Notes: a model not told the origin generated them from the letters alone. Shown: positions 13,317-57,601, counted from the first letter of the stretch. The stretch: 64,000 nucleotides of DNA from Octopus vulgaris (GCA_951406725.2 OX597831.1:47182001-47246000); one strand, 5' to 3'. Numbers and translations: made by a program.

Positions 13317-13435
13317 GTGTTATGAGAAGATGTTAAAATTTAAAAGAATTTTAAATTTTAACATCTTCTCTTCTCCATTTTTTAACTTACTTGTTGAGTT
13401 TCTATGGGACACCTTTCCATAAATTCTCATAACAC
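13317..13435. repeat. Short inverted-repeat element adjacent to (TA)n
   Basis: A perfect 22-bp hairpin at 13324-13370 and a 12-bp inverted repeat GTGTTATGAGAA/TTCTCATAACAC. Confidence 0.6.
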
Positions 13436-13440
13436 TCACA

Positions 13441-13483
<43 letters not shown>

Positions 13484-13518
13484 TATTGTAATTTGCTTGA
13501 AGCATTGTATATTGTTTG

Positions 13519-13676
13519 TAAAGAATAAAAAGGTTCGTATAGTACAACAATGCACTATAATATAGACAATGGGCTATCCAAAATATCATATCAAACTATG
13601 GATGACTAAATTACAACAGGTAATTTAGTCATGCCTATATTATAGTGCATTGTTGTACCATTCAAAACTTTTTATT

Positions 13677-13681
<5 letters not shown>
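13519..13681. repeat. Imperfect fold-back between (TA)n tracts
   Basis: 47-bp outer arms (13519-13565, 13635-13681) and a perfect 13-bp inner stem (13602-13614, 13620-13632). Confidence 0.75.
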
Positions 13682-13725
<44 letters not shown>

Positions 13726-13737
13726 TCTATGTATCAA

Positions 13738-14040
13738 GGCCAGTTACTGTAGTATTTGTCCTGAGATAACATCTGTTTTGGACATTCTGTGTGTAAAACA
13801 ATATATATATATCAGCGTGAAAGAAAGAAAGACAAAAATTTGTTTCGGTAGCTGCCAGTGTGAATAGCAGATGCATTTCAGTTTTTTGGAGCCTTTTCAA
13901 TGGCTTGTACCCACAGCTAGCTACATGTTTAGGTTAGAAATCATGTCTCTGATATAGAAAACATTGAATAAAACATTCACTGATATTGTGAGTAACTGCT
14001 TCAGTATACGCAGTTGAGACAATATTACGTTAAAATAGCC
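13738..14040 (+). repeat. Unclassified dispersed repeat, second copy at about 61356-61625
   Basis: Shared GGCCAGTT.CTG.AGTATTTGTCCTGAGATAAC..GGACAT.CTGTGT and CTCTGATATA..ATTCACTGAT.TTGTGA. Confidence 0.65.
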
Positions 14041-14526
14041 ATCTGTGTATGATACTTAATGTATAAATATTGTTGATAGGCCAAATGCTATGATATATGT
14101 CCTGAGCGAATATCTTGTGTGTGTTTATACATATATATTTTAAGAGAGAGAGGAAGAGCAAGTGAGAGCTGGAGGAATTTATGTATCAAGTAGAACATGA
14201 TACAAATAAATGATAGAATTGGATCAGGATTTTGTGGGGTAAGATGTCAATGAGAATGGATGAGAATTGATTGTGGATCAGGTCAAGTGAGGTGAGTGAA
14301 GTGACAATGAAATGGTAAGGGGTGAACGGAGGGACGCACAAAAACACACGCACACACCAAAAATAAAACAAAATGGAAAGAGAAAGACAATGGTAAGGAC
14401 GGCTAACAGAAGAAAGAAATCTGTAAGATTGATCAGATATGTTATTATTTAGCTCCAGGTCAAACAAGTAGGTTGTGATCACAGATATTCTAGCTGTGTC
14501 TTTTTAAGGGATATATGTTCATTCAA

Positions 14527-14821
14527 TCGTCACTCTTTTCAAGCCTTACCAGGATCATGGGCCCGGTTTCTGTGGTGTATGTGTTCCCCCCAGCTGGATG
14601 GGACACCAGTTCATTGCAGCGTTACTCAAGAAAGAGGAAGAGAGAGTGAGAGAAAGTTGTGGTAAAAGAGTACAACAGGGGTCGCCACCACCCCCTGCCG
14701 TTGCCTTGTGGAGGTTTTTTAAGTGTTTTCACTCAATAAACAACGCCCGGTCTGGGAATCGAAACCACGATCCTCTGACCACAAGTTCACTGTCCTAACC
14801 ACTGGGCCATTGCGCCTCCAC
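14527..14821 (-). mobile_element. tRNA-derived SINE family E
   Basis: Minus-strand head TGGAGGCGCAATGGCCCAGTGGTTAGG..GTTTCGATTCCC. Confidence 0.7.
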
Positions 14822-14870
14822 AATTTTTAAGGGATATGTAGGACTACATTAACTTGTGTTTTTCTCTTTT

Positions 14871-15048
14871 TTCTTTGGTTTTTAAAACATGAGGGTGTGA
14901 CTTGAATGATATTTGGTTGTTATTTCTAGAAGATTGAATAACCATGTAGAGACTTCCTTTCTTTGGTTTTTAAAACATGAGGGTGTGACTTGAATGATAT
15001 TTGGTTGTTATTTCTAGAAGATTGAATAACCATGTAGAGACTTCCTTT
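14871..15048. repeat. 88-bp tandem duplication
   Basis: TTCTTTGGTTTTTAAAACATGAGGG...AGAGACTTCC occurs twice, apparently identical. Confidence 0.9.
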
Positions 15049-15525
15049 ATCGTTTATGTAGACTTTAGCTGTTGACTATTTATAGTCACTGTTTACAGCC
15101 ATTAGCTATTTGTCACTTTACAGCTGTCATGTAAAAAGACAAATCTTGTTACAATCCAGTATGTAGACACAGCCAACAGCTGTCACAGCCTGTTGCAGAC
15201 AGCTACCTTGATGTTGACTATAAACTTTATGCAGACAGTATTTGCAGTTGTGAACTTCATTGTAGATACTGCCTGTTGCTTTTAACTTGTTAGGTACTAC
15301 CCACAGCTTTAAGATAATATCATATCAACACTTAACACTTATGTTCTCTATCCTTACTGTCTTGACCAGGAATGTTCTTTACTTATTTCTCTACATGTGA
15401 TGCTGCTGGTTTCTTATGCTTTACTTATTCTTCTGCTTGTGATGCTGTAAGTTTGTTATGCTTCAGAGTATGACTAGTGGACTGTATCCATGCCGACCTC
15501 ATTAAACTAGTACTCTTAACATGTT

Positions 15526-15571
<46 letters not shown>

Positions 15572-15574
<3 letters not shown>

Positions 15575-15835
15575 TAAAAATGGTAAGATAACAAAAGAAA
15601 GAAAGAGACCTCAATATTATGTCAATAGAGGAAATTTATCTGTAAATTAATATGTTACTATTATTCAATAGCCAAGATAAAACTCTGAGTTTCAGATGCC
15701 GAAGTGGAAATCCACAACACCATCTCTTCAGATGGCCAGATAACCGAAGAGATGGTGTTGTGGATTTCCACTTCGGCATCCGAAACTCAGAGTTTTATCT
15801 TGGCTATTGAATAATGGTAACATATTAATTTACAG
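15572..15835. mobile_element. Fold-back Penelope-like fragment between (TA)n tracts
   Basis: 90-bp arms at 15640-15729 and 15746-15835 with 2 mismatches and a 16-nt loop. The left arm continues unpaired to the (TA)n at 15571. Confidence 0.75.
15735..15804 (+). ncRNA. Hammerhead-like motif (U4C core on this arm)
   Basis: GCCA-GATAA-CCGAAGA-GATG..CATC-C-GAAA-CTCAGAG-TT-TTATC-T-TGGC. The opposite arm keeps CTGAAGA. Stem II has a 1-nt irregularity. Confidence 0.55.
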
Positions 15836-15903
15836 TTATATATATATATGCTTCATCATGGTCTTGTCTGTGATGGTTAAAACATACTAAAAAAACATAC
15901 GTA

Positions 15904-16120
15904 CAATGGGGTGCTGAAAAGTTCCTGGTTTCAAGGGTATCACAAAAGGCCTAGTTGGAGGCCCAACCATCTGAGTTCTTTTACAGGGCTTAGAAAAACT
16001 GAAGAACTACTACAATAAGTGTGTGAATCTGAGAGTGGAATGTGTTCAATAAAATCGTAATTAACTGATCCTTCCATGTTTGCTTTTACCCAAAGTCAGG
16101 AACTTTTTAGTACTCCCTCA
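15904..16120 (+). mobile_element. Mariner-derived non-autonomous element
   Basis: TA-flanked, with TIRs GGGGTGCTGAAAAGTTCCTG/CAGGAACTTTTTAGTACTCC. The internal remnant GLEKLKNYYNKCVNLRVECVQ* resembles a mariner transposase C-terminus. Confidence 0.75.
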
Positions 16121-16516
16121 TACATATGCATGCATACACACACACACACGTACTGTAATTATCAAAATTGAAGAAAATGACAAAACGAAGTGGTCAAATT
16201 TCAGTAAGATAATATGCATGCACAGCACAATCTGTTTCTAGGGTTTGTCTGTTTATATTTCTATTTCCATATTAATATACATAAGTTCAGTTTCTGGGTT
16301 AATCAAACTATATGTAATCTGAGTGAAATGTAATGAAAGTGGCATCACAAGCAGTCGACTGACTAATAAGGATATCCCTGGGTCTGCCTCCTCCATACAT
16401 TCCCTTCACAATTGGAGATCAGCCACCCACTGAAACACACATACATGTATGTATATGTATTCTACACTACATATTTCCCTTATTAATAGGAAACACCTAC
16501 ATTATTAGCTACAATT

Positions 16517-16960
16517 AAGGTGGCGAGCTGGAAGAATCGCTAGCACTCTGGGTGAAATGCTTAGCAGTATTTCGTCTGTTTTTACATTCTGAATTCAAGT
16601 TCCACCGAGATCGACTTTGCTTTTCATCCTTTCGAAGTTGATTAAATAAGTACCAGTTACACACTGGGGTCAATGTAATTGACTTAATCCCCCTCCCCAC
16701 CAAGCTCCCCTTGTGGCAAAACTTTGAAATCATTATTAATTACAATTCTTTTCTACCCTAGGCACAAGGCCTAAAACTTTGGGGGAGGGAGCCAGTTGAT
16801 TAGATCGACCCCAGTATGCAACTAGTACTTAATTTATTGCCTCCGAAAGGATGAAAGGCAAAGTCAACCTCGGCAGAATTTGAACTCAGAACATAGCAAC
16901 ACATGAAATACCGCTAAGCATTTCATCCGGCGTGCTGATGTTTCTGCCAGCTTACTACCC
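16517..16960. mobile_element. Two family B SINEs tail-to-tail (16517-16735 +, 16747-16960 -)
   Basis: Both show the family B head and body in opposite orientation. Confidence 0.8.
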
Positions 16961-17071
16961 TTTTATTAACTACAATTATTATACTCCCAACTAGTTTTTT
17001 CCATTCCCAATGCTGCCGTTTTTTGACCACACTATGACGATATAGTTCTATATTCAAGAGACGAGGAATTA

Positions 17072-17199
17072 TGTACATTATTTACATTTGACGGATATTT
17101 CTCTTCATCTTGTTTGTTGTTAACACAATGTTTCATCTGATATACCCTCCAGCCTTCATCAGGTGTCTTGGGGAAATTTCGAACCTGAGTATTTTTCGA

Positions 17200-17237
<38 letters not shown>

Positions 17238-17513
17238 TCACTGCCTGGAATCGAACTTGGAATCTTGGGGTTAGTAGTCCACGCTCTTAAGTGGTTAAGA
17301 GTGCGGGCTACTAACCCCAAGATTCCGAGTTCGATTCCAGGCAGTGACCTGAATAATAATAATAATAATATTGAAAAATACCTCAGGAATGAGAACCCAG
17401 GTTCGAAAATTTTCCAAGACACCTGATGAAGGCTGGAGGGTATATCAGCTGAAACGTTGTGTTAACAACAAACAAGATGAAGACAAATATCCGTCAAATG
17501 TAAATAATGTACA
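17072..17513. mobile_element. Head-to-head palindrome of a tRNA-headed, hammerhead-bearing element
   Basis: Arms of about 220 bp fold back around CTCTTAA-GTGG-TTAAGAG (17291-17294). Each arm reads outward as a tRNA-like head (B-box GTTCGATTCC), (AAT)n, then a hammerhead. Confidence 0.8.
17418..17463 (+). ncRNA. Minimal type I hammerhead motif (Penelope-like, extra A after A9)
   Basis: GACAC-CTGATGA-A-GGCTG(10 nt)CAGCT-GAAA-CG-TT-GTGTT. A mutated mirror copy lies at 17122-17167 (-). Confidence 0.7.
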
Positions 17514-17802
17514 CTATGAGGATATTTTTATTTTTAAACTGAAACCAACAAAGTTTGTGCTAATTTAGCTGGATTCTTAGAACTGTAAGAAAGAAACTCA
17601 GTGAACAAAATTTTGGACTTCTTGCTTACAACTGTGCATTTGGATTCAATCCAGGTTTTTGATGAGAGTTCCGCTCCTGGTATTTACTGCATTTTAGTTT
17701 GTTTTAACAGAATATCCACATTTAAGTGGGGATAAATATTACCTCTCAGTTTTTGATTAAGTTTCTCGGTAAACCACTTTATTCTACATTATCAGTCTTG
17801 GA

Positions 17803-18112
17803 AGGCATATGGCTTAGTGGTTAAGGGTTCTCGATTGTAAGGTCGTGAGTTTGATTCCCTGTGGCACATTGTATCCTTGAGCTAGACACTTTATTTTACA
17901 TCGCTACAGTTCATTCAGCTGGCAAAAATGGGTAGTACCTGTATTTCAAAGAGCCAGCCCTGTCATATTCTGTGTCACGATGAATCTCCATGAGAACTAC
18001 ATTAAGGGTATGCATGTCTGTGGAACACTCAGCCACTTGCATGTTAATTTCACGAGCAGGATGTTTTGTTGATTGGATCAACTGGAATTCTTATTGTAAC
18101 CAATGAAGTACC
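17803..18112 (+). mobile_element. Family D-related SINE
   Basis: TGGCTTAGTGGTTAAG..GTTTGATTCCC head. The body is homologous to 59165-59470 (-). Confidence 0.7.
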
Positions 18113-19704
18113 AGGTATCAGTTTGATGAAGTATCAGGAATATGAATGCTACCTGTGATAGATTGGCATCTCATTTAGATGTGGGGGTGGATATTCAGAT
18201 TCATCCCTTATCTGCTTCATATCACGAAACCAGAGCCTAAAGACTGTGGTCCTTAAAATCTCTTAGGACTTCATAAAGTATTTGCATATTTTTCATTAAA
18301 CCAGAATATTTATGAAGAGTGGCACTTTTAGATCAATGTCAATCTGATACCAAATATCATAAATACTGTATTTGTCACTCTTTGCACTGACATCCCAGAT
18401 TCTTTAAATTTCTTCATGGTGTTTTCATATCTTAGATTTCATTCCCATTAGACTAGTATGCTACTATTTTTCATCATTTTTTGATACTTCTAGTGAGCTA
18501 AACGAACATGTGCTTGTACACACACACGCACATGCGTACAGACAAGCACAAGCGGTAACAAATATTCACACAAATACTTACACATTTATGTTGTTGTATA
18601 TACAAGTGTTTCACTGTCCCTATGTAACGAACTATAATGACTCATTCTTAGTCCAGTTCCATTAAATAATAATCTGTTGATACAGTATCCCTAAAAGAAA
18701 AAAAATTATATTTCCTTCAGTTTAATCATTTGTTTGCTGCATGAAAACAAAAAGTACATGATGAATTCAATAAAGAATCATCTGTTGTACAGTCCCAGAT
18801 CAGATTTGATTGAGCTTACCTATAACCAAGGCACTCTTAGCTGTGACCAGCTTTATTTTGGAGATGTTTTTGTGTCTGGTGAGTGATTTGATCTCAGAGT
18901 GTGTGTTGAAATTAAAACAATTGCGGGTGGGAGTGACACATACCAGTCATACAAAAATATGTTTTTGAATAACTTATATGCATCTTCCACACTGTTAATG
19001 CATCTTCATTTTTTTGTTTCTCTAAATCATGGACTTCGTTGTCTAAAGTATCTTGCTTTATTTGAGACAGTAAGATTTAGTTTTGAAGGAGGCTTGGATA
19101 CCATTTCTAACAGGTTGAGTGACTGTGTAGTTGCTTCCTTCTTGGCACCATTAGTGGTTGTTAATGTTTGCTCCAGGTCATCTATGATTAAAGGTGTTCC
19201 AGCCATGCCCATCCCATCTTTTCAGATATAGCTTTTCTCACATTATTGAAAAGGACGATGGATTGGTAGAATCATTAGTGTTGGATAAAATATTTGTTCC
19301 AGATCTTTATATTATAAGCTCAAATCCTGCTGCAGTCAGCTTTGCTCTTCATCCATTCAAAGTTAATAAAATAAAGTTACCAGTTTCAGAGCTGTGAATT
19401 GGTGGAATTGTTAGCACACTGGGCAAAGTCATTATTATCATCATTATTGTTATAACATCCACCTTTCCATGCTTGCATGGGTCAGATGGAATTTATTGAC
19501 CAAGGCAGACTTTCTGTGGCCTAATACCTCTCTTGTCACTAACTCTGACTTGCTTTCAAGCAAAGTAATATTTCCCCATTGCCAGATATGTTTTTCATTG
19601 AAGACTGGAGGAAAAACAAACTTGCTTGTATGTAATCAAACCATCATGTTATGTCTAGGCAAAGGTGCACACAAACACACTCTCACATGCACACATTTTT
19701 TTTG

Positions 19705-19909
19705 TTTTTACTTGTTTCAGTCATTTGACTGCTGCCATGCTGGAGCACTGCCTTTAGTCAAGCAAATCAACACCAGGACTTATTCTTTGTAAGCCGAGTA
19801 CTTATTCTATTAGTCTCTTTTGCTGAACTGCTAAGTTACGGGGACGTAAACACACCAGTGTTGTCAAGCGATGTTGGGGGGACAAACACACACACACAAA
19901 CACACACGT

Positions 19910-19952
<43 letters not shown>

Positions 19953-20280: not shown

Positions 20281-20310
20281 TGTGCCTGTCTTGTGGTATT
20301 TCTTCTCATC

Positions 20311-21151: not shown

Positions 21152-21195
<44 letters not shown>

Positions 21196-22530: not shown

Positions 22531-24273
22531 AAATGAAAAAATGAATGAAATGCAATGTGAAATAAATTATGTATATAAAGGCAGGGCAGCTATGTTTTTG
22601 ATTATTAATTGGCAGAAGAGTGACTCAAGTGCTGAGAGTTACATGCATTGATAAGTGTCAATACTCAAAATTCTCATCCCTTGAGTCACTCTGTAACTTT
22701 GGCCAGTTAATAATATATATATATATGTATATATACATGCATGCATATGCATACTCTGTAAAGTGGCTGGCATTAGGAAGGGCATCCATCTATAGAAACT
22801 ATGCCAAAGCTGACACTGGAGCTCAATGCAGTCTTGCAGCTTACTGGATCCTGTCAAACTGTCCAACCCATGCCAGCATAGAAAACAGATGTTAACTGAT
22901 AATGATGGTGGTGTTGCTGGTGGTGATGTCATCAGTGTCAGCAGCGGTGGCATCGTCGATGATGATGATATTCTTTCAGTTCTATTTTCTTGTTTGTATG
23001 ACCAAACCCGTATTTTTGATCATAGATCTGGTGAGTCAAGTCTTACAATGGGACTAAAAGACAATAACAACAACTAACATTCTCACAAGCCAGTAAGGAA
23101 ACACCTACAGAGTTGTTTGGCTTCCAAGAAATAGTTGTCAACTTTTCCTCAAACAACACTTCTGGACATAAAATGCCAAAAAGGAAGATAACATGCTAAT
23201 GTCAAGAAGGCCTGTTGGATAATAAAATAAATGTAAGTGAATTTCAGAAGGTATAATTTACCCTACAGTTAGCTGGACACTTAGACTAAACTGGTTATAC
23301 CACTTAAGGTACCTTAGATCTGGGGTACCATCACTATCTAGAAGGATTGCAAAGCAGACTGTAGCACAGAATATGGCAACAGAAGAGTATCCAGGTGTCA
23401 TGGTCTGGAAACAGCCTGGCTCCCTTAGAGGGTAAGATTAAGGGCTGAAACACTTGCTAGAGTTTCTTACTACTAAAGAAGCTATTTATTACAACTCGCC
23501 TCTGTTATAACTGGTATTAAAATCTACAGACATATGGAAACAAAGTGGATAGTGGAGAGAGATACTGCATAACAGAACATGCAGTATGGTCTGTAGGTGT
23601 GACATGTTTAGAGCTTTGGATCTGTATGTTGTGCCTAGTTAATCAGCCAACAACCTACTGTTGGCACAAATCTATTCAATCAGGCTGATTTAGAACTACA
23701 CTACAAAGACCACTATTTCTCAATGACTGATCTATAGTTGTAAATCATAAAAGCTGTGAATAGCAAGCTATCAATGATGTACCATTATAAAGTGTATATG
23801 TAAATCATATTATGGGCAGTGTCCAACCATGATCTTCATGTCATAATTTTCATGCATGTGGTCTTCTTGGACCCTTCATTAAATGTTAGGGTATGATTTT
23901 TACGGAAATTTGGCTTCCATTTCTGACAGATTGAGCAACCAAGTGACACTCATAGTGACATCAGCACTCGATATTGCAGGGTAGTGAAATACTCATGAAT
24001 TATGCAGTACTACCAGCTGTAGCAGGTAATACTCCTTGTTATTTTTTTACAGCTAGGTTGACCGGGCTATTTGAGTATCAAACACATTTGCTATGGACAG
24101 TGTAGTACTTATGGTGACAAGATATGAACCGTGCACTCTTCAATTTGCAGCTTGGTTCAGTTTTCCATTTCAGCTGTCAGTGGTTGGATACTAATTTATT
24201 TATTTTTTTTTTGTCAAAACATTATTATTCCTAAATCTCTCAGCAAGAGATATTCAGTAGCAGTACTTTAAAG

Positions 24274-24512
24274 TAAAGGTTATTTACCAACCTAATATGG
24301 CAGTCCCACTTGGGACGGATGCTCCTGTTGTTTAGCCCCAGGAGACATCATCTCCGGCTGGCTAAACAGGAGTGCTAAACTCCCCTTTTCGAAAATATAA
24401 GGACTGAGATTGTGTATCGTATAGCCAGCTGGAGACGATGTCTCCTGGGGCTAAACTACAGTAGCATTTGTTCCAACTGGGACTGCCACATCAGGTTGGT
24501 AAATAACCTTTA
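24274..24512. mobile_element. MITE with long (about 91-bp) terminal inverted repeats
   Basis: Arms 24274-24364 and 24422-24512 are near-complementary (TAAAGGTTATTTACCAACC...GGTTGGTAAATAACCTTTA) around a 57-bp spacer. TA at both ends. Confidence 0.75.
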
Positions 24513-24565
24513 TTTTTGTTGAGATAGATTTAAATCTAACATTGGATTAATAATTCTTATTTAAT

Positions 24566-25343: not shown

Positions 25344-26993
25344 TACTTCTACACACATTTTCTTGTGTGTGTGTGTGTACATATGCATGTGTAGTTATAT
25401 GCATCTGCATATACATATGTACATCTATGTGTATGTATGTATACATTGGTTTCATACATGCATGCATGCATGTGTGTTGAACTTTTACCTTTTTAAGGCT
25501 AACAAGCTTTCATCAAACTGAAACTTTGCAGTCACTGTCAACCCTCTTTCAGTAAAAAGTTAAATAAACATGAATTCTACTAAAAGTATTGAGCAATTCC
25601 TCAGTTTAATGTTAAATTGTTTTGATGTATAACTTAACCATAAAAACATATACATATATATATATATCCTTTGGAAATGTAAGTTACTTAAAGCATTTAC
25701 CTTCCTTTTCCCTCATTATAATCCCTCTCATTTCTTGTTTTCCTGCTTCCACCCTTCCTTTCTCTTGTTTATTCTCTCACGTTGTTTTCCTTTCACTTTC
25801 TGTCTCCCTTATTGATTCTCTTTGTATCCCCTAACATACACTCCTCAAAGATGTATTGCGCACACTCTCTGTCTATTGTTCTATTTACAATGGTAAAACC
25901 TTAGAAAAAAGACATTATTATCTATATTGATTCATGAAATTTAATTCTGGGGTGATTAAGCTTGGGCTGCACGTAGGGAAAATGTTTTACTTTGCTTAAT
26001 TAATTATAGTTTTAAATGGAAAAGATACATGTACGTTTTCTATAACCTGGTTGAATATAAAATGTTTATTCATTATCATTTACCTTCACAATGTAATATC
26101 TTGTGTTTCAAGCATAGCTTCATAGAAACTTAATGAATCAACAAAACTCAAGGAAAAATATTTGAACTGGGGTTAAAACAACTATTTTAAAATAAAATTA
26201 CACTGATTTTTATTTCTGTCAACTTAATTAAAGCATACTGCCTGTTCTAATGTGTAATTATAACATGTAACACGTTGTTGAGAGGAAAGCTGTGTAAGAT
26301 TTATTTTGGAGTTGGTGATATAAGATATGCACTGTTGTTCATGATTATGTATGGCTTTTACTGGTATGATCTTTGATTGAAGATTTCACTTTGAATGAAG
26401 TGTTAAATCCTAAAATTTATTAAAAATTGTTAAGTTTATGAAATTGTTTTGCAAGATTCCTGATGTGAAATCATATGTTGAAACAGATACTGTTATATTT
26501 CGGAAGTAGACACGTGGGGTGAAAGAGTCACTGAAGAGGTCACAGGTGTGTGACAAAAGATTTCCAGACAATTGATATAAAAAAAATTAAGGAGAATAAT
26601 AAATGAGTGAAGAACAAATATACATAGTGCATATGTTTATTTGGCATGAAATAAAAAAATGACCATCTCAAAATATAACACTTACTAAAAATTCCTTTTC
26701 ACTAAATATAACAGAATAGACACTTAACGAATTATATATGTAATATAATATTGGTTTCTGAGCAGTGTTGAATTTTTTGCAGTCACAAAGGATTTTCCTC
26801 CTTGTTTCATTTTTACTGCACTTTTACATTATCTTTTTTTATTTACATCTTTAGTGTTGAGTTTAATGACTCATAGGAAAAACCTTGAATCATCATATGT
26901 GTTTATTGAAGTCAGAGAGTAATTTATAAAACAGAATTTTTCCATGCCACATATTTTACAATCAATGCTATTGATAAAAGAGCAATTTTCCAA

Positions 26994-27047: not shown

Positions 27048-27138
<91 letters not shown>

Positions 27139-42658: not shown

Positions 42659-42961
42659 CAGTAATAATATAGGGTGAAATTAATTAATTTGGAATAATCA
42701 TTAATTTCACCAAGTAGATTTCGGCATGTAAAAGCCTCATTCGAGGAAAGTTTAAGTAATACTAAGTAATTAAGGGTTTAGCAACGATTTGCCTCACCAC
42801 ACACCGAAATTTAGAAATAGCAGTCAAAGAGTTATAGCTATTCTTTCTACTAAAAGGGAGATCTCAGTGGTTTTACTGAGATCTCCCTTTTAGTAGAAAG
42901 AATAGCTATAACTCTTTGACTGCTATTTCTAAATTTCGGTGTGTGGTGAGGCAAATCATTG

Positions 42962-42964
<3 letters not shown>
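42659..42964. mobile_element. Fold-back element between (TA)n tracts
   Basis: 90-bp arms at 42779-42868 and 42875-42964 with 1 mismatch and a 6-nt loop. An additional 12-bp terminal hairpin lies at 42673-42711. Confidence 0.75.
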
Positions 42965-42998: not shown

Positions 42999-45029
42999 TG
43001 TATATATATATACATAGAGAGAGAGAGAGTTCTCTGAAAGTTGTAGAAGAAGGAGAATGTTTCCTTACAGGTAACTTGAATTTACAGCTGCCCTAAGGTT
43101 GCATGACATCATTGACAGTGGAAGCAAATAGATTTATCTGGATTGATCTCTTGTCTCATCTTAGATGGTGGTGAATCTGACAGGTTGAACTTCATAAATT
43201 CTAAGTGCAAATTCCAAGAACAATAGAAACTGACATGGAGATCGATTCTTGGTTATGAGAATCTAGTGTGTATCTCTAACACAAATATGCAGCCTCATTC
43301 CTTTTAGAGGGGGGAGTGGGGGGACATTCTTTTTTGGTCTGTAGAGGTAACAGCATCTTCTGCTCTGTGTGTACTCTAGTTCAGAGATGGAAAAAAGTAC
43401 AGCATTTGAAATTTAAATCGTTATATTGGAATATGTTTGTGTTGATTTTAAGTTGTTTAAAGCCTACGTTTTCAGATACTTGTGAATTTTTTTGGAAACA
43501 TCTATTTAGATTTCTTTATCTATATTTATAATTACTTCTTTGCAATAATTACAATTGTGTTGAAAGCAGAAATCTGTAAAAAAAATTTCCAAAAAATAAG
43601 CCAAAACAAAAACTTACTATTTTTAAACTTAGGAGTGCTTATTCCAAAACTCTAACATTTTAATATTTTGTTAAAGTTTTTATGAACAAGTGCATTTTAT
43701 AAAGTAATAGCTTTCCATTATTAACATTTTTTTCTGAAATGCATTTTGTCAGATGGCAGCTGTTTCCCCACCCTCATTCCAGCTACTCTATTTTCACTAT
43801 AACCACCACAAGCATTAAGTATTGTTGTGAAATCCAAGTTAGCACTGCTTGTTGAGATATATTATCAATGGTGATCGTCTCATCTTTAATTTTTTTCCTT
43901 TTTTGACTTAGAGTACCTTGGACTACATTGTCCAATGTATTGTGTGTGTGTTTTTGTTTTTTAAGATATTAAGGTGTAGTTTGAGGGAGATTTGGCTGCT
44001 ATTTCTTCTACAGCAAAACTCCTTCATTGGCAAGAGTAATCCTCCCATCTCTGTCTCTTCCTGCTTGTCTCTCTTTCTATCTATCTATTTATCTATCTAT
44101 GTGTGTGTATGTGTGTGTGCGCATGTATATATATACATTGTTAAAAAAATGGTCCGTTCCATGCTGTTTTTACTTTTTTGTTTCTCGTTGAGTTCTATGT
44201 CTATTTGTGGTGTCCTGTACACACGTATATATATTTATATATGCATGTATATATACATGTAGATGTAGGTACGTACATATATGTTTGTATGTATGCATAT
44301 ATTTTATTTATTACACTATTGTATGACTGAGCGCCCTCGTGTTGATTCGATTCAATTCATTTCGTTTCGTTTCTTCTTCTTCTCTAAGCTGGTTTATATA
44401 TATATATATATATTTACTCATTCATTCATTGGTGATAAATATATGAGGATATACATAATATATGCATGATATTGTACAACTAATTCTAAAACTGAACATT
44501 CCAGAAGGCAATATTTGCCATAGTTTGGGTGGTAAAAATCATTGAAAGTTTATTTGAAGATTAAGAGCTAGCAGTGTGTGCATGTGTGTGTGTGTGAGTG
44601 CGTGTGTAAAATGAATAAATTAAATGAATAAATAAAACAGCATTTTGATTGCATTTGGAAGATAAACCACTTTAAAAATATAATGGCCAATAGCAACACT
44701 GGAGTGCTACAGTAACCTGATACCATTTAGTTATTTGCCAAATATCAGAAAAAGAATTTTTATGCTGAAGAGGGTGTTATTTATTTTTTTTTTACTATTT
44801 TTGTTTCTCATGTGATTCTACGCTTTGGGCAAATAGTTCCCTAACAGACGTGAAGGTGTGAGTTCAATCCTATTTTTAGCTATTGTGGGTTCACTGTAGA
44901 TGAATGATACAAACATGACAAATGTTGTTAAGCTATAGCTAACCTACCACATCACACATATGGTTTATAAGCAGTGCTAGATGTGCTCAAGGTATGTAAC
45001 TGAAATGACATAAGTGAAATTTGAAGTTT

Positions 45030-45865
45030 GAAACATTCAAATTATTCTGTCAGAAGTAATGCTTATTTATTCTTATTGTTTTGAAATTAATCATGCATTA
45101 ACTTGTAGCTTTGAGATTTTGATGAGGTAACTGTTAATCTATTATATAAAATCCGTTCTGTCTGTCTCTGTGTGTGTCTTCTAGGATCTCGGGCATCCTC
45201 CATCCGATTGCGTTCAAATTTGATATGTAGATACTGACGGTATCAGGGCGTGTATAAGTCTTGAAAAAGTTACAAAAATCTATTCCAGGTGAGAATGCGA
45301 TCGATAAAGCCGTAAAACGTGCATTTGTATGTGCAAGTACATCAGCTGTTGTGATCGATACTACACGTACACGAGAAAAATGGATGTGCAGTTTGCGCAA
45401 AAAAAGACGGCTTCCATTTTTTGTTGTTTTTGTACTGCTTAAAGGCACGTTTCTTTCCTGCCAAGCTTACTGTTTAAACCATGTTTGTGTTCTCCCAGTC
45501 AACAGCCTTATCATTACTGGTACTTTAAACTCTTCAGTTGCATATTTGTGTGAATAAAATCGTTTTTCTTTGGAATAGAAAAAAAGTGTATCTTTATTTC
45601 TTCTTTTGCTGGTGTCTCAAATTTAGGCTATATCAGTGTTTCTCAAAGGGGAGGCCTATGGGACGGTCGGACAAGTTGTTTTGAGAAAATTTGGTTTAAA
45701 TGCCTGACAACTCAGCACCGTCCATTCGACGGGGGAGGGGGGCGTTTTGCACGATTTTTTAATATTGTAGGGTTGGTGTGAAGAGCCAGACACAGCCAGT
45801 TTGAACATAAGAAACAGGTAGAAAATTTTGGCTAGATATGGCTGGTTTAAATGCTAACAGGTTGA
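45030..45865 (+). mobile_element. piggyBac-type MITE split by a Helitron-like insertion
   Basis: 45030-45136 and 45755-45865 match the two halves of the 7225-7445 element. Confidence 0.65.
45138..45753 (+). mobile_element. Non-autonomous Helitron-like element
   Basis: 5' TCTATTATATAAAA followed by CTGT repeats, and a subterminal hairpin CCGTCCATTCGACGG. No TSD seen. Confidence 0.6.
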
Positions 45866-51180: not shown

Positions 51181-51464
51181 TTTATAAAATATGAAAGAAA
51201 AGAAAAAAGTTTCCTAAGCTGGTGATTGAGAGTCATATAATCAAAGATGTAGAAAGCAGCTAGACTCAGAACTTATATTCTGAGATTAATAAGCTTCAAA
51301 CACAACACAGCTTAGAAGCTACTGCATAGATCTAATATGCTAATGCAAGCAAGCTTCATTTAAACTTATGGTGGCTGTTGTTTGTTTGTTTGTATGTATG
51401 TTTGTATGTATGTATAAACTTACTTGGAAATGGATGTGTGGCATTCAATTAAATAATCTAAATA

Positions 51465-51522
<58 letters not shown>

Positions 51523-51600
51523 CCATATACACACACACACATATATATATATGCATATATGGGTGTGTGTGTGTGTATATATATATATCTTTATATATAT

Positions 51601-51783
51601 TTTAGCTCCTACACGCATTTTTTTCTCTCCTCGTTTCTTTTCTGTGCATTTTTCTGTCGAAGAGCGTAGGCTCGAAACGTAAAAGACTTGTTTTATTTCT
51701 ATTCCTGAGCGCCATACTAATACAATTGTTTGTTTGTACTCCACCTGCCTTCGTGTTTTGTTTCTTTTCGTAAACCTTCCCGT
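51601..51783 (+). mobile_element. Short Penelope-like 3' fragment in (TA)n with hammerhead-like motif at 51649-51686
   Basis: TTTTT-CTGTCGA-A-GAGC-GTAG-GCTC-GAAA-CG-TA-AAAGA, embedded between TA microsatellites. Confidence 0.6.
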
Positions 51784-51965
51784 TATATATAGGTGTATAT
51801 GTATATGTGTGTGTGTGTATATGTATGTATATGTATGTAAATATATATGTATGTATATATGTATGTATGTATATGTATGTATGTGTATATGTATGTGTAT
51901 ATATATTTATGTATGTATATATGTATATATGTATGTATATATATATATGTATGTATATGTATGTA

Positions 51966-52011
<46 letters not shown>

Positions 52012-52058
52012 GAAAGAGATACTTTGATGCACCATTATATAAGACAAATGGATTAAAT

Positions 52059-52175
52059 GGATAGAATAAGTACTAGGCTTCCAAAGAATAAGTCCTGGAG
52101 TCGATTTGCTCGACTAAAGGCGGTGCTCCAGCATGGACACAGTCAAATAACTGAAACAAGTAAAAGAGTAAAGAG
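52059..52175 (+). mobile_element. SINE family A, 3' tail
   Basis: GATAGAATAAGTACTAGGCT..CTGAAACAAGTAAAAGAG. Confidence 0.75.
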
Positions 52176-52185
52176 TATATATTAC

Positions 52186-52502
52186 GGAGATGTACTTGCA
52201 TGGCAAGTGACCTGATCTGAGATCGTGTGTTGAAACAAAAACAGTTGCAGTGTGGAAGGTGTTTGTAAGCCATTTAAAAACACACAAAAACTGTTAGATT
52301 CACTTCAATGTTTAAATATAATTTGTCAAAATATTTTTGTCATTTTAAGACTGCAACATGATCACTGACAAAATTCCGTGCTGCATTTTATCAGTGATCA
52401 CGTTGCGGTCTCAAAGCAACGAAAATATTTTGGCAAATTAAATTTAAATGTTGAAGTGCATCTAACGGTTTTTGTGTGTTTTTAAATGGCTTATAAACAC
52501 CT
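52186..52502. mobile_element. Fold-back Penelope-like fragment
   Basis: Imperfect 118-bp arms at 52257-52374 and 52385-52502 with a 10-nt loop. The left arm extends to a short TA run near 52180. Confidence 0.7.
52387..52437 (+). ncRNA. Hammerhead-like motif with G3:C8 core variant
   Basis: TTTATCA-GTGATCA-C-GTTGC(9 nt)GCAAC-GAAA-ATAT-TT-TGGCAAA. The mirror arm has a perfect stem I (TTTGTCA/TGACAAA). Confidence 0.5.
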
Positions 52503-53388
52503 ATCACGCTTCCTTCGTTTTTCCATCTACTAAATCACTCACAAAACCACGGTTGAGAAATAAGCCTCTCCACTGCACAAATACACTTTGTGCTTATCAA
52601 TGACAACAATATTTAATTTTTTATATTTCTGTTTTCTTCAAAGTGGAAAATATATTGGTGTGTGTTTTACCACTCTTCTGCCAAAGTAACAGAGAATGAG
52701 ATTCATTTCTCATTCACCTAATGATTTTTAGAACAGAACTAAACATCAGTTTTATGAACTTTTGCCAGTGGTGTATGAAAAGAAGATGAAAAAAAATAAA
52801 TAAAAAGAGAGAGAGAGAAAGAAATTTCTTCCTTTTAACTTACAGAATAAATTTATCTTAATTTTAGTTTAAATGTGTTGAACATTTTAGACATAGTTAA
52901 AATGAAATAAATCTTTAACTACCATCTTAAGATGGGTAGTTAAATGAGATTTACTGAAAAAAAAATTGTTACTGTAATTTTTATGATCTAGCCTTTGGAA
53001 TAATCTACTTTTATATTAGATATTCTGATAAGATTCTCAGAAACTCTGTGTTAATATGACATAAATTGCTTATGTAATATTTATGCTATGGCTTTTGGAA
53101 CTTACCACTTTTACATTAGATATCTTTAAAAATTGTCAGAATCATCTGCATAAACATTACACACATGAAGAACTCTGGAATATATATATACATATATATA
53201 TGGGTGTATGTATGTATATATATATATATATGTATAAAATAAATATAAGAGAGTGGTCACTATATGGCTCACTCTAGCACCAGTTAATCCAAAAGGTTTC
53301 AACCACAAAAATACATGTTTCCCATGAAAGTCAGTACGATTGTTAGCTCACACGGACAGGGCAAATAAAAAATAACAAATACAGATTA

Positions 53389-53470
53389 TTTTGGGACAAT
53401 TGTTTCGCTATTAATGAATTAAATGTAATTTTACTTACAATAAAATCCACTTGTAGCTCTTCAGCCAAAA
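53389..53470 (-). ncRNA. Minimal type I hammerhead ribozyme motif, copy 1
   Basis: The minus strand reads TTTTGG-CTGAAGA-GCTA(43 nt)TAGC-GAAA-CAATTG-TC-CCAAAA. It has an intact core, 6-bp stem I, 4-bp stem II, palindromic stem III (ACAATTGT) and a GUC cleavage triplet. Confidence 0.8.
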
Positions 53471-53921
53471 CCATCTGGATGAAATCCACTCAATCACACG
53501 CCAGATTTTACCATAACGATAAATACGCGTGTGGTTCAATTGATTACATCCGACGTTATAATTCAAATGCCCCAACTAACAGCGCGCCAAACTTTCACGG
53601 AAAACAAATACAGCATTTAGAAATAAATGCAGCATAATTATAATTAATTAATAAGGGTGAGAGAATTAGATACTAATTTAATAGTATATCTATTCTACAC
53701 CAAGTGGCCTAGTGCTTCGAGAAACCTGGATTATTATAATATTTTATAATATATTATAATATTTTTACAAAATAAATATAAGAGAGTGGTCACTATATGG
53801 CTCACTCTAGCACCAGTTAATCCAAAAGGTTTCAACCACAAAAATACATGTTTCCCATGAAAGTCAGTACGATTGTTAGCTCACACGGACAGGGCAAATA
53901 AAAAATAACAAATACAGATTA

Positions 53922-54003
53922 TTTTGGGACAATTGTTTCGCTATTAATGAATTAAATGTAATTTTACTTACAATAAAATCCACTTGTAGCTCTTCAGCCA
54001 AAA
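53922..54003 (-). ncRNA. Minimal type I hammerhead ribozyme motif, copy 2
   Basis: Same sequence as 53389-53470, offset by 533 bp inside the direct repeat. Confidence 0.8.
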
Positions 54004-54311
54004 CCATCTGGATGAAATCCACTCAATCACACGCCAGATTTTACCATAACGATAAATACGCGTGTGGTTCAATTGATTACATCCGACGTTATAATTCAAA
54101 TGCCCCAACTAACAGCGCGCCAAACTTTCACGGAAAACAAATACAGCATTTAGAAATAAATGCAGCATAATTAAAAATATTATAATATATTATAAAATAT
54201 TATAATAATCCAGGTTTCTCGAAGCACTAGGCCACTTGGTGTAGAATAGATATACTATTAAATTAGTATCTAATTCTCTCACCCTTATTAATTATATATG
54301 TATAATATATT

Positions 54312-54519
54312 CTTTTACTTTTATTCTTTTGTTTTGGTCGTTTGATTGTGGCCATGCTGGAGCACCACCTTAAAGTGTGTTAGTTGAAGAAATCAACCTC
54401 AGGACTTATTCTTTGTTAGCCTAGTACTTATTCTATCATTCACTTTTGCCGAACTGCTAAGTTACAGGGACATAAACACACCAGCATCGGTTGTCAAGCA
54501 ATGGCAGGGGTCAAACACA

Positions 54520-54580
<61 letters not shown>

Positions 54581-54770
54581 GCATGCACACACAGAAATAT
54601 ATGCACATATATATACAATGGGCTTCTTCTAGTTTCCATCTACCAAATCCACTCACAAGGCATTGGTTGGCCCAAGGCTATAGTAGAAGATACTTGTCCA
54701 AGGTGCTATGCAGTGGGACTGAACCCGGAACCATGTGGTTGGGAAGCAAGCTTCCTACCACACAGCCACA
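54312..54770 (-). mobile_element. SINE family A
   Basis: Near full-length copy. Confidence 0.85.
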
Positions 54771-56904
54771 CATTATTTTGGTTGATTTAGTCTCTTGCAA
54801 CTCTGAGTTTCGCCTTTGGGTACACAGAGTCTTCAGGCAAGTTATGACTGAAGAATTGATGGAATATATACATATATAGACTGATTCAATCAAAATAAAG
54901 ATATTGATTTCAAATTTTAGCATAAGGCCAGAAATGTTGGGGGAGGGGGTTATTCAATTACATTGAATCCAGTACTCAGCTGGTTGTATTTACCTTGAAA
55001 TACAATAAGCATGCTAATGAATCTACCCACCCGCCACTGTCCCCAAAATAAAAATATTGTTAATCTCTACTATAGTGTCAAGTATTCTTTCTCTTTACAG
55101 TCAACACTAAATGGATGTGTGTGTGTGTGTGTGTGTGTGTTTGTTTGAGAGAGAGAGAGAGAGAGAGAGACATTGAAAAGACAGCTGTATTGAAAATGCA
55201 TTCATGAAACCTGTGCTTTATATTCTAAATATATCGTTATCTCATTTCCCAACACTAATACAATTTGTTACAATCAAACACCAATTAAGATGTTCTACAA
55301 GTATCACACTTTAAGAGAAAAAAACCCATAAAAACATGCACTATACAAACATTTGGGTTTTTTTTCAACAATAGATATTTGTCTAGAATATTTGTAAAGT
55401 TTCCGGTTATTAAAATTCACAATAGCACACATTTTTGAGCTTTCATTTTCTATTTAACTCAACAATCAAACCAAATAAATATATAACAACTGTATATATT
55501 ATAGGTGTCTCAATCTCATCTCTCCTTTTTTTATAAAATTAATGACATTATATAAAATGTTAATTTCTTTATATTTCCTAATGGTCTTTTAGTTCTTGAA
55601 AGACTGGTAGAGATAGGGGTGGTTCAGTGAATAAAAATTTGATTTCTTACATTGGCACAAAACCTCATCCTTGGGCAATTTTTATAGACAATGATATCAA
55701 ACTCAGTGCTAGGTTTGTACATTATCTTACCAACCTCAGAAATATGAAAGTCTGTGTCATGCTGTATCTTCCTGAGAACTGTGTTAAGTGTATGCATATC
55801 TGTGGAGTGAGGGGTCAGGCACTTGCATGTTAATTTCATGAGAGGAATGTTCTGTTGATCAGATCATCTGGAACCCACATCGTCGTAACTGACTGAGTAC
55901 CAGCTTGTGAACATGACTGTGGTGAGTGCAGAATTTCACATGTGTGAGCACTCATATGTATGATATATGGTTTGTATATTGTAAACGATTTGCTGATGTC
56001 CATAAGTGAATAATTTTTGACTTTGAAAAAAAGAACGGAATGTAACAATCATTATTTGTATTAATGGGGGGTCTCAATGAGAGTTTGAATTATTTGGTAT
56101 TATGGTAGTTTTTATTTACTTTTATTTTTTATTTTCATTTTTTCCACATTTCTGTTTATAATTACAGAAAAATATGTCGGCTCACTTGTTAATATTTCAT
56201 GACCAGCATCAAATTAATAACTTTGTTTTTTTTTTTTTTTTTTTGCATATTTATTTTTTTTTTTTTTAAAGGATGGTATATAGATAAGTAGCACGGGTTA
56301 GATAGCTGGGTTTGCTGATTTGTAATTGTTATTTTAATTTGCCCAGCACTTAAATAATGAGAAAAGCAGTGAGAAACAACCGTGTTAATAGTATGGCGAT
56401 TTCATTTTTAAATGTAGAATTTTATCAGTGGAATGTGGAGAAACTATCAATTGAAAGGAGAACTCAAGTGGAGAGAGTAACAATTGGCATTCTAAGCATT
56501 TGCTTGTGTTGTATCACTCCCTAGTTAAAACCAGTGCACAGCTCAAAAATATCATAGAGAATTAATTAACTGCTTTTGATTCCAACCTGCCAGACACTGG
56601 CTTTAGGTTTTGGATACAAAATTGTCTGTTTTAATATGTTCTTTTATCTTTTATTTTTTACTTGTTCTAGTCATTGGAATGCAGCCATGCTGGGGCATTG
56701 CCTTGAAGGGTTTAGTCAACTAAATTGAGCAGTTAATTTTTTAAAGCCTGGTACTTATTTTGGTTTCTTTTTTCTGAACCACTAAATTATGGGGATGTAA
56801 CAAACCAACATCGGTTATCAAGCAGTTGTAGGGGACAAACACAAGCACATGTATATATGTGTGTGTGAACCATGGAAAACGGACATTAAATGATGATGAT
56901 GGCG

Positions 56905-57383
56905 ATTCAATGGAAATTGCAGATGTGTTCCCAGTGCCGGTGGCATGTCGAAACTCTACTTGTGAAGACCCGTTGAGGCAAGTGAGGATCAGAATGGAAA
57001 TTGATCAATGGAAATTGCAGATGTGTTACCAGCGCCGGTGGCATGTAAGAGAACCTTCCGTTTCGCGACCGTTGCCAGCACCGCCCCGTTTCGTGTCCGT
57101 TGCCAGCCTCGCCTGGCCCCTGTGCCGGTGGCACATAAAAAGCACCATCCGTTCGTGGCCGTTTGCCAGCTCTGTCTGGCACCTGTGCGGGTGGCACGTA
57201 AAAAGCACCCACTACACTCACGGAGTGGTTGGCGTTAGGAAGGGCATCCAGCCGTAGAAACACTGCCAGATTTGACTGGGCCTGATGAAGCCTTCTGGCT
57301 TCACAGACCCCAGTAGAACCGTCCAACCCATGCTAGCATGGAAAACGGACGCTAAACGACGATGATGATGATGATGATGATGA
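56905..57383 (+). mobile_element. SINE/LINE-tail family C ending in (GAT)n
   Basis: GGCGTTAGGAAGGGCATCCAGCCGTAGAAA..CCAACCCATGCTAGCATGGAAAACGGACG then (GAT)n. Internal repeats of CCGGTGGCA. Confidence 0.75.
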
Positions 57384-57409
57384 TATATATATATATGTAT
57401 AAATATATA

Positions 57410-57601
57410 GTGAGAATTTAGAAAAAAACAAAAGACGAAGATGGGTGTGTAAACAACAAACAGATATATTAGTTTAACGCTCGGGAAGTTAGAAAGTCTT
57501 TTACATTTTGAGCCTACGCTCTTCGATAGAAAGGAACACAGAAATAAGCAGAGAGGGAAAATAGAAAAAAGGTTTAGTGGCTAGCGATCTATCATGGCGC
57601 G
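57410..57601 (-). mobile_element. Second, diverged copy of the 51601-51783 family
   Basis: The minus strand reads CTTT-CTATCGA-A-GAGCGTAGGCTC-AAAATGTA-AAAG at 57498-57533, with a similar downstream tail. TA-flanked. Confidence 0.6.

Follow-up and report, generated by a model that had tools for sequence, protein, structure and literature searches.

Hammerhead-bearing insertions of probable Penelope origin in Octopus vulgaris, including a candidate tRNA-headed SINE

We found six insertions of five families, each bearing a minimal type I hammerhead motif, in a window of 64,000 nucleotides from Octopus vulgaris (the whole stretch of DNA that was analysed; Table 1). The motifs are real, and the five families are unrelated. 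With a probability of about 80%, all six insertions are products of the reverse transcriptase (RT) and GIY-YIG endonuclease machinery of Penelope-like elements (PLEs), in which case B would be a SINE with a PLE-type end, A, C/C2, and D would be stubs, and E would be a non-autonomous dimer, the PLE enzyme and its two-strand priming being presumed. The hammerhead anatomy, head-to-head junctions, one-sided tails, the TSD of B, and TA targeting in most insertions point to the PLE origin, by TPRT, that the original prediction had proposed, but not to a new "system." Instead of the novel retroelement community envisaged there, the general observation is the published PLE footprint found again, near the density expected from the PLE content of the O. 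vulgaris genome (6.83%; 190 families, 31 of them recently active). The prediction had missed the most distinctive item, namely, the tRNA-derived Pol III-type head of B.

Table 1. Positions of the insertions, their parts, and the host context in the window
Feature	Position	Strand	Description
Element A	15572-15837	.	Head-to-head fold-back between (TA)n runs
A hammerhead	15735-15804	+	Stem I of ~10 bp with one bulge, core CCGAAGA, stem II GAUG/CAUC, palindromic stem III
B left TSD	17029-17043	+	14/15 identical to 17511-17525
Element B	17044-17510		Head-to-head fold-back flanked by 15-bp TSD, without TA flanks
B left arm	17044-17290	-	5'-truncated tRNA head, (AAT)n, spacer, hammerhead, optional tail of ~30 nt
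B tRNA-derived head	17290-17349	+	Box B at 17327-17338; box A cut by the apex in the window copy
B minimal hammerhead	17418-17463	+	Stem I GACAC/GUGUU, CUGAUGA core, extra A, GAAA, palindrome AACGUU
B right TSD	17511-17525	+	Pairs with 17029-17043
Element F	42660-42964	.	Near-perfect 186-bp fold-back, extended on one side by 120 nt and bordered left and right by (TA)n; absent from the original prediction
Element C	51601-51785	+	Single-arm copy in TA-rich microsatellite; hammerhead 51649-51686
Element D	52186-52510	.	Head-to-head fold-back; left arm with 63-nt one-sided extension abutting TA
Element E	53236-54294	-	Near-exact dimer of 533-nt ORF-less unit, TA at both ends
E hammerhead copy 2	53388-53471	-	533 nt downstream of copy 1
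E hammerhead copy 1	53921-54004	-	Canonical core, GUC site, palindrome ACAAUUGU, long stem II
Element C2	57410-57601	-	Separate insertion of family C, decayed to 76% identity with C and flanked by (TA)n runs
Fer tyrosine-kinase coding exon	58822-59028	+	Host context; 100% identical to Octopus sinensis and O. bimaculoides proteins

A descriptor scan detected a hammerhead-shaped motif in each locus named beforehand (6/6). The region 13317-13680, where the predicted system was said to start, holds hairpins free of any hammerhead match. The strict canonical descriptor matched only the two E copies. Relaxed post hoc, with the sequences already viewed, it gave five matches with a stem I of at least 4 bp, compared with none in each of 100 block-wise dinucleotide shuffles, and seven matches with a stem I of at least 3 bp, compared with a shuffle mean of 0.04 (maximum, 1). 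The motif frequency, a check suggested in the prediction, was in excess over shuffled sequence, and one of the seven matches (9439-9511) is probably due to chance. The pair G10.1-C11.1 was present in 5/5 families though the descriptor did not require it (in B it is the family majority, restored in 75 to 78% of the family, with G-U in the window copy), and B, C, and D have an extra base after A9. Compared across families with the descriptor, the stems differ in sequence yet still pair; as claimed earlier, there is no obvious primary-sequence similarity among the families (best cross-family E values, 0.006 to 0.02 over 17 to 24 nt). An Rfam search found no hammerhead at E values up to 5 in the window, nor any in the right arm of B. 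Single-strand folding z-scores were modest (-0.4 to -2.1), and the MFE fold of the A hammerhead region has the hammerhead shape. Homodimer cofold energies were better than those of two monomers for 9/9 stretches, a result that palindromes give trivially. Self-cleavage would probably be weak and dependent on dimer or protein help, and the core deviations of A, C, and D (U4C, A6U, and G3:C8, respectively) may render their ribozymes inactive.

In A, the descriptor match (+ strand, 15744-15794; predicted cut after 15794) lies in the right arm, whose core carries U4C; the left-arm copy (CTGAAGA) keeps U4 and lacks stem I. The A arms differ at 3/92 sites, and those of D at 15/118. Both D arms have the core GUGAUCA, i.e., a G3:C8 swap (match on the + strand, 52394-52430), with an intact stem I (7 bp) in the left arm and an intact G12 in the right. 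The C hammerhead (match on the + strand, 51654-51681) has the core CUGUCGA (A6U), an extra A, stem II GAGC/GCUC, and the palindrome ACGU. A pairing of C and C2 as one fold-back was rejected, as they are separate single-arm copies 5.6 kb apart. The E unit consists of Y (~405 nt) and X' (~128 nt), and the reading order X(inverted)-Y-X'-Y begins with an inverted start of 123 nt. Both E hammerheads have the canonical core CTGAAGA (matches on the - strand, 53997-53928 and 53464-53395), so that E, like a retrozyme, comprises two tandem units without an ORF, each with a complete type I hammerhead. The element is young (X copies, 100% identical; Y copies, 99%), and its two presumed cDNAs would each end where the other begins. 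Element F resembles the other fold-backs in insertion anatomy and has only a nonconforming hammerhead-like motif.

The six hammerhead-bearing insertions in 64 kb amount to one per ~11 kb, in agreement with the proposed one copy per 10 kb. Nine of the 12 insertion ends touch TA runs, compared with 8% of window positions equally near such runs (binomial p of about 3e-8, for loci that were partly picked for TA). The asserted TA association thus holds for most insertions but not for B, which has its 15-bp TSD. Similarly, palindromes in which the ribozyme reads outward from the apex were confirmed in A, B, and D but not in the other loci: only three of the five families are true head-to-head fold-backs because C and C2 are separate single arms and E consists of two tandem units, with its start inverted. 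One-sided extensions measure ~62 nt in A (left arm, 3' side, 15572-15633), ~30 nt in B (17044-17073), 63 nt in D, and 120 nt in F; as an optional 3' tail, that of B is defined by two family end clusters, and those of A and D come from a single locus each. Family-level data cover B, and A, C, D, and E are represented by one or two local copies each.

A Pfam search of all 177 stop-to-stop frames of at least 62 aa and high complexity in the window found neither an RT or GIY-YIG remnant nor a transposase, and the elements had no matches in prokaryote, virus, and metagenome scans. Thus, these insertions are not autonomous EN+ PLEs, which would have an RT plus GIY-YIG ORF, and, with no such gene in the window, we infer the PLE link. 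The type I minimal hammerhead does lie near the 3' end, as in PLE-derived sequence.

The family of B is amenable to closer description, with 38012, 35637, and 32837 matching contigs in three DNA runs of three organisms and presence only in one presumed-RNA run. Its order is a tRNA-type head with boxes A and B, (AAT)n, the hammerhead, the optional tail, and often a short inverted 3' arm; the inversion is family-wide, and the apex position and inverted-arm length vary between copies. A complete box A upstream of 17290 was recovered from other copies by a loose-end consensus of 439, 469, and 361 contigs in the three DNA runs; this consensus together with the window sequence places it at tRNA positions 8 to 19. 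ARAGORN and Rfam called no tRNA on the truncated head of the window copy, which folded no better than shuffles. Family ends form two clusters ~30 to 34 nt apart, one for tailed copies (17040/44/45) and one for tailless copies (17508/11), and the flanks beyond them are heterogeneous and AT rich (agreement, 0.40 to 0.46). The right-arm hammerhead (match on the + strand, 17423-17458; predicted cut after 17458) has the canonical core CTGATGA, and its stem II is GGCUG/CAGC plus U in the window copy, with C in the family majority; the left-arm copy (17167-17122, sense on the minus strand) shows CpG decay at G12/C11.1. The sense strand of the left arm is free of T4 runs, and the T4 run of the right arm is removed in the family majority. 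Among variants listed at a frequency of at least 8%, the sole non-CpG core change is at N7, the free position, and no compensatory double change in the stems occurs among the variants listed, 11 others standing outside that list. B thus has the traits of a SINE, being short (~270 nt), noncoding, dispersed, and of high copy number, with a TSD and a head with boxes A and B.

B is therefore a candidate PLE-mobilized SINE, with presumed Pol III transcription and a presumed PLE mobilizer. More tentatively, and at somewhat less than even odds, B may represent an undescribed SINE class with a tRNA promoter and a copy number probably in the tens of thousands in several octopus species, which would parasitize Penelope-like (telomerase-related) RTs via a captured hammerhead-bearing pLTR end and whose ribozyme core, with drift at N7 only, would be kept by selection; this novelty is set against described SINEs, a comparison that leaves aside the 893 families filed as "unclassified SINE" in the O. 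vulgaris library. A simple repeat does separate head and tail, and the contig rows skip the (AAT)n junction, which leaves some room for a reading of B as two elements: a plain tRNA-SINE with (AAT)n at its end and, inserted after it, a PLE stub, joined in a single fusion or in many. We consider this improbable, however, given that both arms carry head, (AAT)n, and tail inside one TSD and that diverged contigs of several organisms, with 8 to 13 differences, bridge the head to the spacer or hammerhead (X1 records 2 and 3, X2 record 30, and X12 record 19). Moreover, other copies have joints from 17085/17088/17098/17181 to 17290, i.e., a short inverted 3' arm directly against a full head, and mirrored depths of head and spacer are nearly equal (head:spacer, 0.83 to 0.94; head:hammerhead, 0.51 to 0.60; rough values, not copy numbers). 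Mobilization by a LINE (RTE, CR1, or Dong-R4), as for other SINEs or schistosome SM-alpha and with the hammerhead as a passenger, is very improbable in our judgment: LINEs rank first in abundance among the TE orders of O. vulgaris, a 15-bp TSD suits LINE endonucleases, and twin priming also yields inversions, but the 3' end of B lacks poly(A) or a simple repeat, its two discrete 3' ends fit the PLE tail, the same 3' sequence is repeated in both arms, and the hammerhead is of the PLE minimal type.

For the insertions as a whole, long inverted arms and TA flanks recall Tc1/mariner-type MITEs, and the hammerheads could then be incidental to, or captured by, fold-back DNA transposons with DDE transposases and TA targets. 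Such an origin is scarcely credible: it calls for terminal inverted repeats that match and a short TSD of fixed length, whereas here the two arms of an element are not equal, lack a spacer, and carry a tail on one side only. Besides, C consists of single arms, E is tandem, the TSD of B measures 15 bp and its inverted arms vary in length between copies, the motifs exceed shuffles, and no transposase was found in the window. It is also doubtful that each of the five families, even A, C, and D, is a self-propagating noncoding retroelement and not a by-product of coding PLEs. No ORF was found in any of the five, and the anatomy of B and E looks non-autonomous, but the 5' ends of C and C2 do not coincide, the breakpoints of A and D lie at stem I or immediately before it, most PLE hammerheads in the literature occur as truncated single copies, and no promoter motif was found in A, C, D, and E, all four of which contain T4 runs. 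Most probably, A, C/C2, and D are pLTR stubs with truncated 5' ends, derived from different PLE families.

Under the PLE reading, the enzyme would nick AT-rich DNA, often (TA)n, and copy the 3' region of an RNA with the pLTR hammerhead; both target strands could prime, each from one of two internal start sites, and the two cDNAs would extend toward the RNA 5' end and then be joined head-to-head. Two-strand priming with such joining would yield fold-backs with outward ribozymes and a "tail" on a single arm. In accordance with this, purified Poseidon protein nicks and extends both strands at AT-rich DNA, and its two internal RT starts define the tail (PMC11167929). Trans-mobilization by the pLTR alone is described for PLEs in the available part of PMC3846280. 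E would be a retrozyme-like non-autonomous 533-nt tandem unit that entered the genome as a near-exact dimer, with an inversion of the twin-priming type, and B a distinct, very abundant non-autonomous family that acquired its own tRNA-derived Pol III promoter and whose 3' recognition end would be of the PLE type and not the LINE type.

If B is a PLE-dependent tRNA SINE, a pairing that we did not find in the literature outside subscription journals, Repbase, and Dfam, SINE partners would extend beyond LINEs, and B would be a 270-nt natural minimal substrate for PLE RT that defines a minimal cis-signal for PLE retrotransposition and implies that the hammerhead is needed for PLE-type mobilization in vivo. 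Likewise, D would add a natural G3:C8 hammerhead, and the E dimer would be a fossil of priming twice on circular or multimeric RNA. Lunse et al. reportedly compiled a catalogue of PLE hammerhead variants in 2017, which may already contain the D and C variant cores. Rfam misses all ribozyme motifs of the window, and such elements may end up under MITE, SINE, or unknown in repeat pipelines. Cleavage by the PLE hammerhead was dispensable for insertion in vitro (PMC11167929), and the tiny, high-copy B family with its subfamilies is useful for a test of selection on the core.

The window motifs resemble the minimal pLTR hammerheads of EN+ PLEs in the accessible part of Cervera & de la Pena 2014 (PMC4209133) in their short helix I, extra base after A9, G10.1-C11.1, and palindromic helix III (15.2-16.2/loop 3 there), as well as in the many unrelated, heterogeneous families per genome, opposite-strand pairs (100 to 700 bp apart there), mostly truncated copies, and 3:8 core covariation; the pair given there is U3:A8, whereas D has G3:C8 and C has A6U, and here no coding PLE is linked. 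Head-to-head junctions, a one-arm tail, AT-rich targets, and two-strand priming are shared with PLE insertions (Arkhipova 2013, PMC3846280, and Craig 2021, PMC8557442, in the parts consulted; Frangieh 2024, PMC11167929); PMC8557442 describes a (TA)n bias and the inverted 5'-truncated copy. The one-sided extensions of A, D, and F (62 to 120 nt) are longer than the PLE tails of typically 30 to 40 nt in the portions available (~31 nt, optional and at one end, in PMC3846280), and the 15-bp TSD of B is longer than the 8 to 10 bp given there for rotifer PLEs.

Octopus tRNA-derived SINEs bear the names OK, OR1, and OR2, and Ohshima and Okada are said to have reported such elements in 1994. With the octopus and mollusc tRNA-derived SINEs in the available part of Matetovici 2016 (PMC4758252), B shares a head with boxes A and B, a length of ~270 nt, a very high copy number, and a TSD; the partners described there are LINEs, whereas the 3' end of B is a hammerhead-bearing PLE-type end. 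E is comparable to the non-LTR retrozymes (Cervera & de la Pena 2020, PMC7229834; Li, Clavereau & Pollet 2026, bioRxiv 10.64898/2026.07.22.740005), as far as the accessible sections describe them, as an ORF-less tandem with a type I hammerhead in each unit, and its 533 nt fall within their reported 51 to 972 bp. Unlike them, E has only two units, the first partly inverted, and ends at the Y/X' boundary and not at the ribozyme cut site; the circular RNA intermediate of retrozymes is hypothetical in its case. Finally, B and the SINE-like schistosome elements SM-alpha/Sj-alpha (PMC6765202 and PMC8490949, in part) are both short noncoding repeats in which a type I hammerhead lies downstream of a Pol III-type promoter. 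SM-alpha, according to those portions, forms tandem multimers with a canonical, tertiary-stabilized hammerhead and no established PLE tail, whereas B is dispersed and combines a minimal PLE-type hammerhead with TSDs, a PLE tail that is either present or absent, and regular head-to-head inversion.

The window DNA is AT-rich, dense in repeats and animal in character, and it holds no long genuine ORF. The exon encoding the start of the Fer tyrosine kinase showed 100% identity to the Octopus sinensis and O. bimaculoides proteins, which places the DNA in the genus Octopus, and the hammerhead elements are located upstream of it. Pfam analysis of 177 stop-to-stop frames of the window (at least 62 aa, high complexity) returned the Fer FCH domain, sub-cutoff noise and nothing else; no RT, GIY-YIG or transposase domain was found in these frames. 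Many SINE copies form long-range inverted pairs throughout the window, and we take its common SINEs to be OK/OR by name.

Elements and repeats of the window (A to E, hammerhead families; F to J, other fold-backs and hairpins)
Feature	Coordinates	Form	Hammerhead core	Other traits
A	15572-15837	head-to-head fold-back, ~62-nt 3' extension in one arm	U4C, in the stem I-bearing arm	
B	17044-17510	head-to-head fold-back, ~30-nt 3' extension in one arm	canonical	box B at 17327-17338, in the tRNA-like start of the arms
C	51601-51785	single arm	A6U	
C2	57410-57601	single arm		
D	52186-52510	head-to-head fold-back, 63-nt 3' extension in one arm	G3:C8 in both arms	
E	53236-54294	X(inverted)-Y-X'-Y, minus strand	canonical	
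F	42660-42964	fold-back of the A/B/D type, 120-nt one-sided extension		(TA)n on both sides
G	24270-24516	GC-richer fold-back, 247 bp, 78% arm identity	no match	no TA flanks
H	22617-22692	hairpin element	no match	
I	13324-13370	hairpin element	no match	
J	13480-13680	short hairpin	no match	beside TA
Hairpin	13317-13440 (spans I)	short	no match	beside TA
Hairpin	22600-22710 (spans H)	short	no match	beside TA
Half-core repeats	4260-4500, 44135-44400, 62815-63030		first half only, then a T-rich run	last two 74% alike across 144 nt
Kin of D's extension	18860-19000, 26438-26494	74-75% likeness	hammerhead part absent	
Inverted kin of another repeat	6950-7160, 45130-45460			GC-richer cores
tRNA-like SINE, common	16526-16952	inverted pair, 72% arm identity		
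Fer exon	58822-59028			

A strict canonical descriptor, run on the window and on 100 shuffles, matched only the two copies within E (2 versus a shuffle mean of 0.01). The relaxed descriptor, which was loosened only after the sequences had been viewed, allowed the 3:8 pair to be any of the Watson-Crick pairs, tolerated a single change at position 4 or 6 and a single inserted base beside stem II, and required stem III to be a perfect palindrome. When stem I was at least 4 bp, five matches were obtained (A, B, C, and E twice) versus none in all 100 shuffles, and the original prediction that families unrelated in sequence carry a hammerhead motif was thus borne out above chance, with a descriptor that had been tuned. 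With stem I of at least 3 bp, D and a site at 9439, the latter a probable chance match, brought the total to seven versus a shuffle mean of 0.04. Since the descriptor was tuned, an untuned trait weighs more: G10.1-C11.1, which the descriptor does not demand, occurs in each of the five families (for B, in the majority sequence of its family). Besides, an unpaired base follows A9 in B, C and D, and both features are traits of the PLE (Penelope-like element) minimal hammerhead according to Cervera and de la Pena 2014 (PMC4209133). The stems pair in every family, although they are wholly unlike in sequence between families.

Folding z-scores were modest (-0.4 to -2.1), and the MFE structure of A's right arm was the hammerhead fold. 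Rfam detected none of the window's hammerhead motifs and no genuine tRNA, and we rejected its miRNA matches as artefacts of microsatellites and hairpins; ARAGORN gave no match either. As for the core of D, a C3G/G8C double change in a PLE hammerhead partly rescued cleavage (PMC11167929) and a natural U3:A8 pair has been described for PLE hammerheads (PMC4209133); a natural G3:C8 pair, like the A6U change of C, may already be known. A degenerate G3:C8 pattern occurred at 101 metagenome and 5 viral loci, with at least four stem II pairs in 3 of the 106; these loci were taken as chance, as none of the three with an adequate stem II had a palindromic loop III and none was D-like. The exact pattern of C had no match in prokaryote genomes and viral contigs, nor had that of B in metagenome contigs. 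The half-core repeats are possibly decayed or "half-core" PLE/Naiad ends.

The predicted fold-back form stands for A, B and D, whose ribozymes face outward, and fails for C and C2, independent single-arm copies with 76% identity and different 5' ends, and for E, a tandem with an inversion. In E, an ORF-less 533-nt unit is nearly exactly doubled, with the first X' flipped. Its outer end and inversion points lie no more than a few bases from the Y/X' boundaries and away from the ribozyme cut site, which suggests that the template RNA was uncleaved when inserted; such a pattern would be the expected leftover of twin priming if the RNA was tandem or circular and offered two start sites. Fold-back F, which the earlier observation had not named, is young, with 1 mismatch in 90 between its arms. 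The minus strand of its extension holds stem II and GAAA with a nonconforming 5' core, and this hammerhead-like motif was rejected for its core misfit and lack of a hammerhead fold. Kinship between E's X segment and the extension of F was not significant (best E value, 0.23). TA runs adjoin 9 of 12 element ends versus 8% of window positions, a figure biased by the choice of loci. The predicted TA association is upheld only in part: B has no TA and is flanked by a target duplication of 15 bp, whose two copies agree at 14 positions.

The window architecture as a whole is that of published PLE behavior. PLEs have been described as heterogeneous minimal-hammerhead families, mostly truncated single copies and opposite-strand pairs 100 to 700 bp apart (PMC4209133), and as bearing an inverted pLTR, an optional 31-bp tail and a target site duplication, with head-to-head as the commonest arrangement and pLTRs mobilized in trans (PMC3846280). 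Their insertion is biased to (TA)n (PMC8557442), and they nick and extend both strands of AT-rich DNA, two internal RT starts setting the tail, in a study where ribozyme cleavage was dispensable (PMC11167929). The window elements, including F, add up to ~2.8 kb and make up 4.4% of the window, which agrees with the 6.83% of the genome (190 families) assigned to PLEs in the O. vulgaris annotation, whose supplement makes no mention of ribozymes. We infer from anatomy the elements' tie to a coding PLE, and consider them, with a probability of roughly 0.8, to be mostly known PLE debris. The earlier observation was largely right, and its reading as a new system too strong.

To the motif excess, the anatomy, the target duplication, and the family ends and head of B that we observed, known PLE biochemistry would add target priming on two strands, each from one of two internal start sites, and a joining of the arms at the apex through microhomology. 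Alternatively, self-priming on an antisense template, as proposed by Arkhipova in 2013 (PMC3846280), might produce the fold-backs from one cDNA folding back; in A, however, the extra 5' bases sit on the short-tailed arm, which two independent cDNAs fit better.

Family-level evidence was gathered for B, from contigs at least 80% like it: DNA runs from three organisms yielded 38012, 35637 and 32837 matching contigs, while a further run, guessed to be RNA, yielded 1945 and indicates presence only. The flanks of B were essentially free of contig cover, except at the orthologous locus in one run, X2 (depth about 56 to 62). Family ends cluster at 17040/17044/17045 and 17508/17511 against heterogeneous AT-rich flanks and, when mirrored, give two 3' ends 30 to 34 nt apart. 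In the three DNA runs, 439, 469 and 361 contigs share a continuation before 17290, which contains seven acceptor-stem bases and the whole box A at tRNA positions 8 to 19. Diverged contigs span the head, (AAT)n and hammerhead, the alignment having skipped the (AAT)n junction. At the 5' end of the B family, a leader of ~10 nt is complementary to the first tRNA-head bases and forms a small terminal hairpin. Several joints connect, in other copies, a short inverted 3' arm to a full head, and fold-back is thus a habit of the family. Mirror-summed depth, which is not copy number, gave head-to-spacer ratios of 0.83 to 0.94 and head-to-hammerhead ratios of 0.51 to 0.60; the about twofold depth of the hammerhead end is what would be expected of insertions that often carry an additional, short 3' arm.

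In the listed variants, which reach 8% or more, hammerhead core changes were confined to N7 (U>A) and CpG sites, and no compensatory pair was present; C11.1 is restored in the family majority. Its sense strand lacks a T4 run, which would be compatible with Pol III read-through. Against this stand the skipped (AAT)n junction and the truncated head of B, which neither ARAGORN nor Rfam called as a tRNA.

As a tRNA-headed and hammerhead-tailed family, B goes beyond published PLE behavior and is plausibly a new variant; the G3:C8 core of D and the exact dimer of E are minor additions to it. No PLE-tailed SINE appeared in the literature searched, with most subscription journals, Repbase and Dfam lying outside it. 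The nearest precedent of B is the schistosome SM-alpha, which combines a Pol III promoter with a hammerhead and differs from B in being described as tandem and canonical (review PMC6765202).
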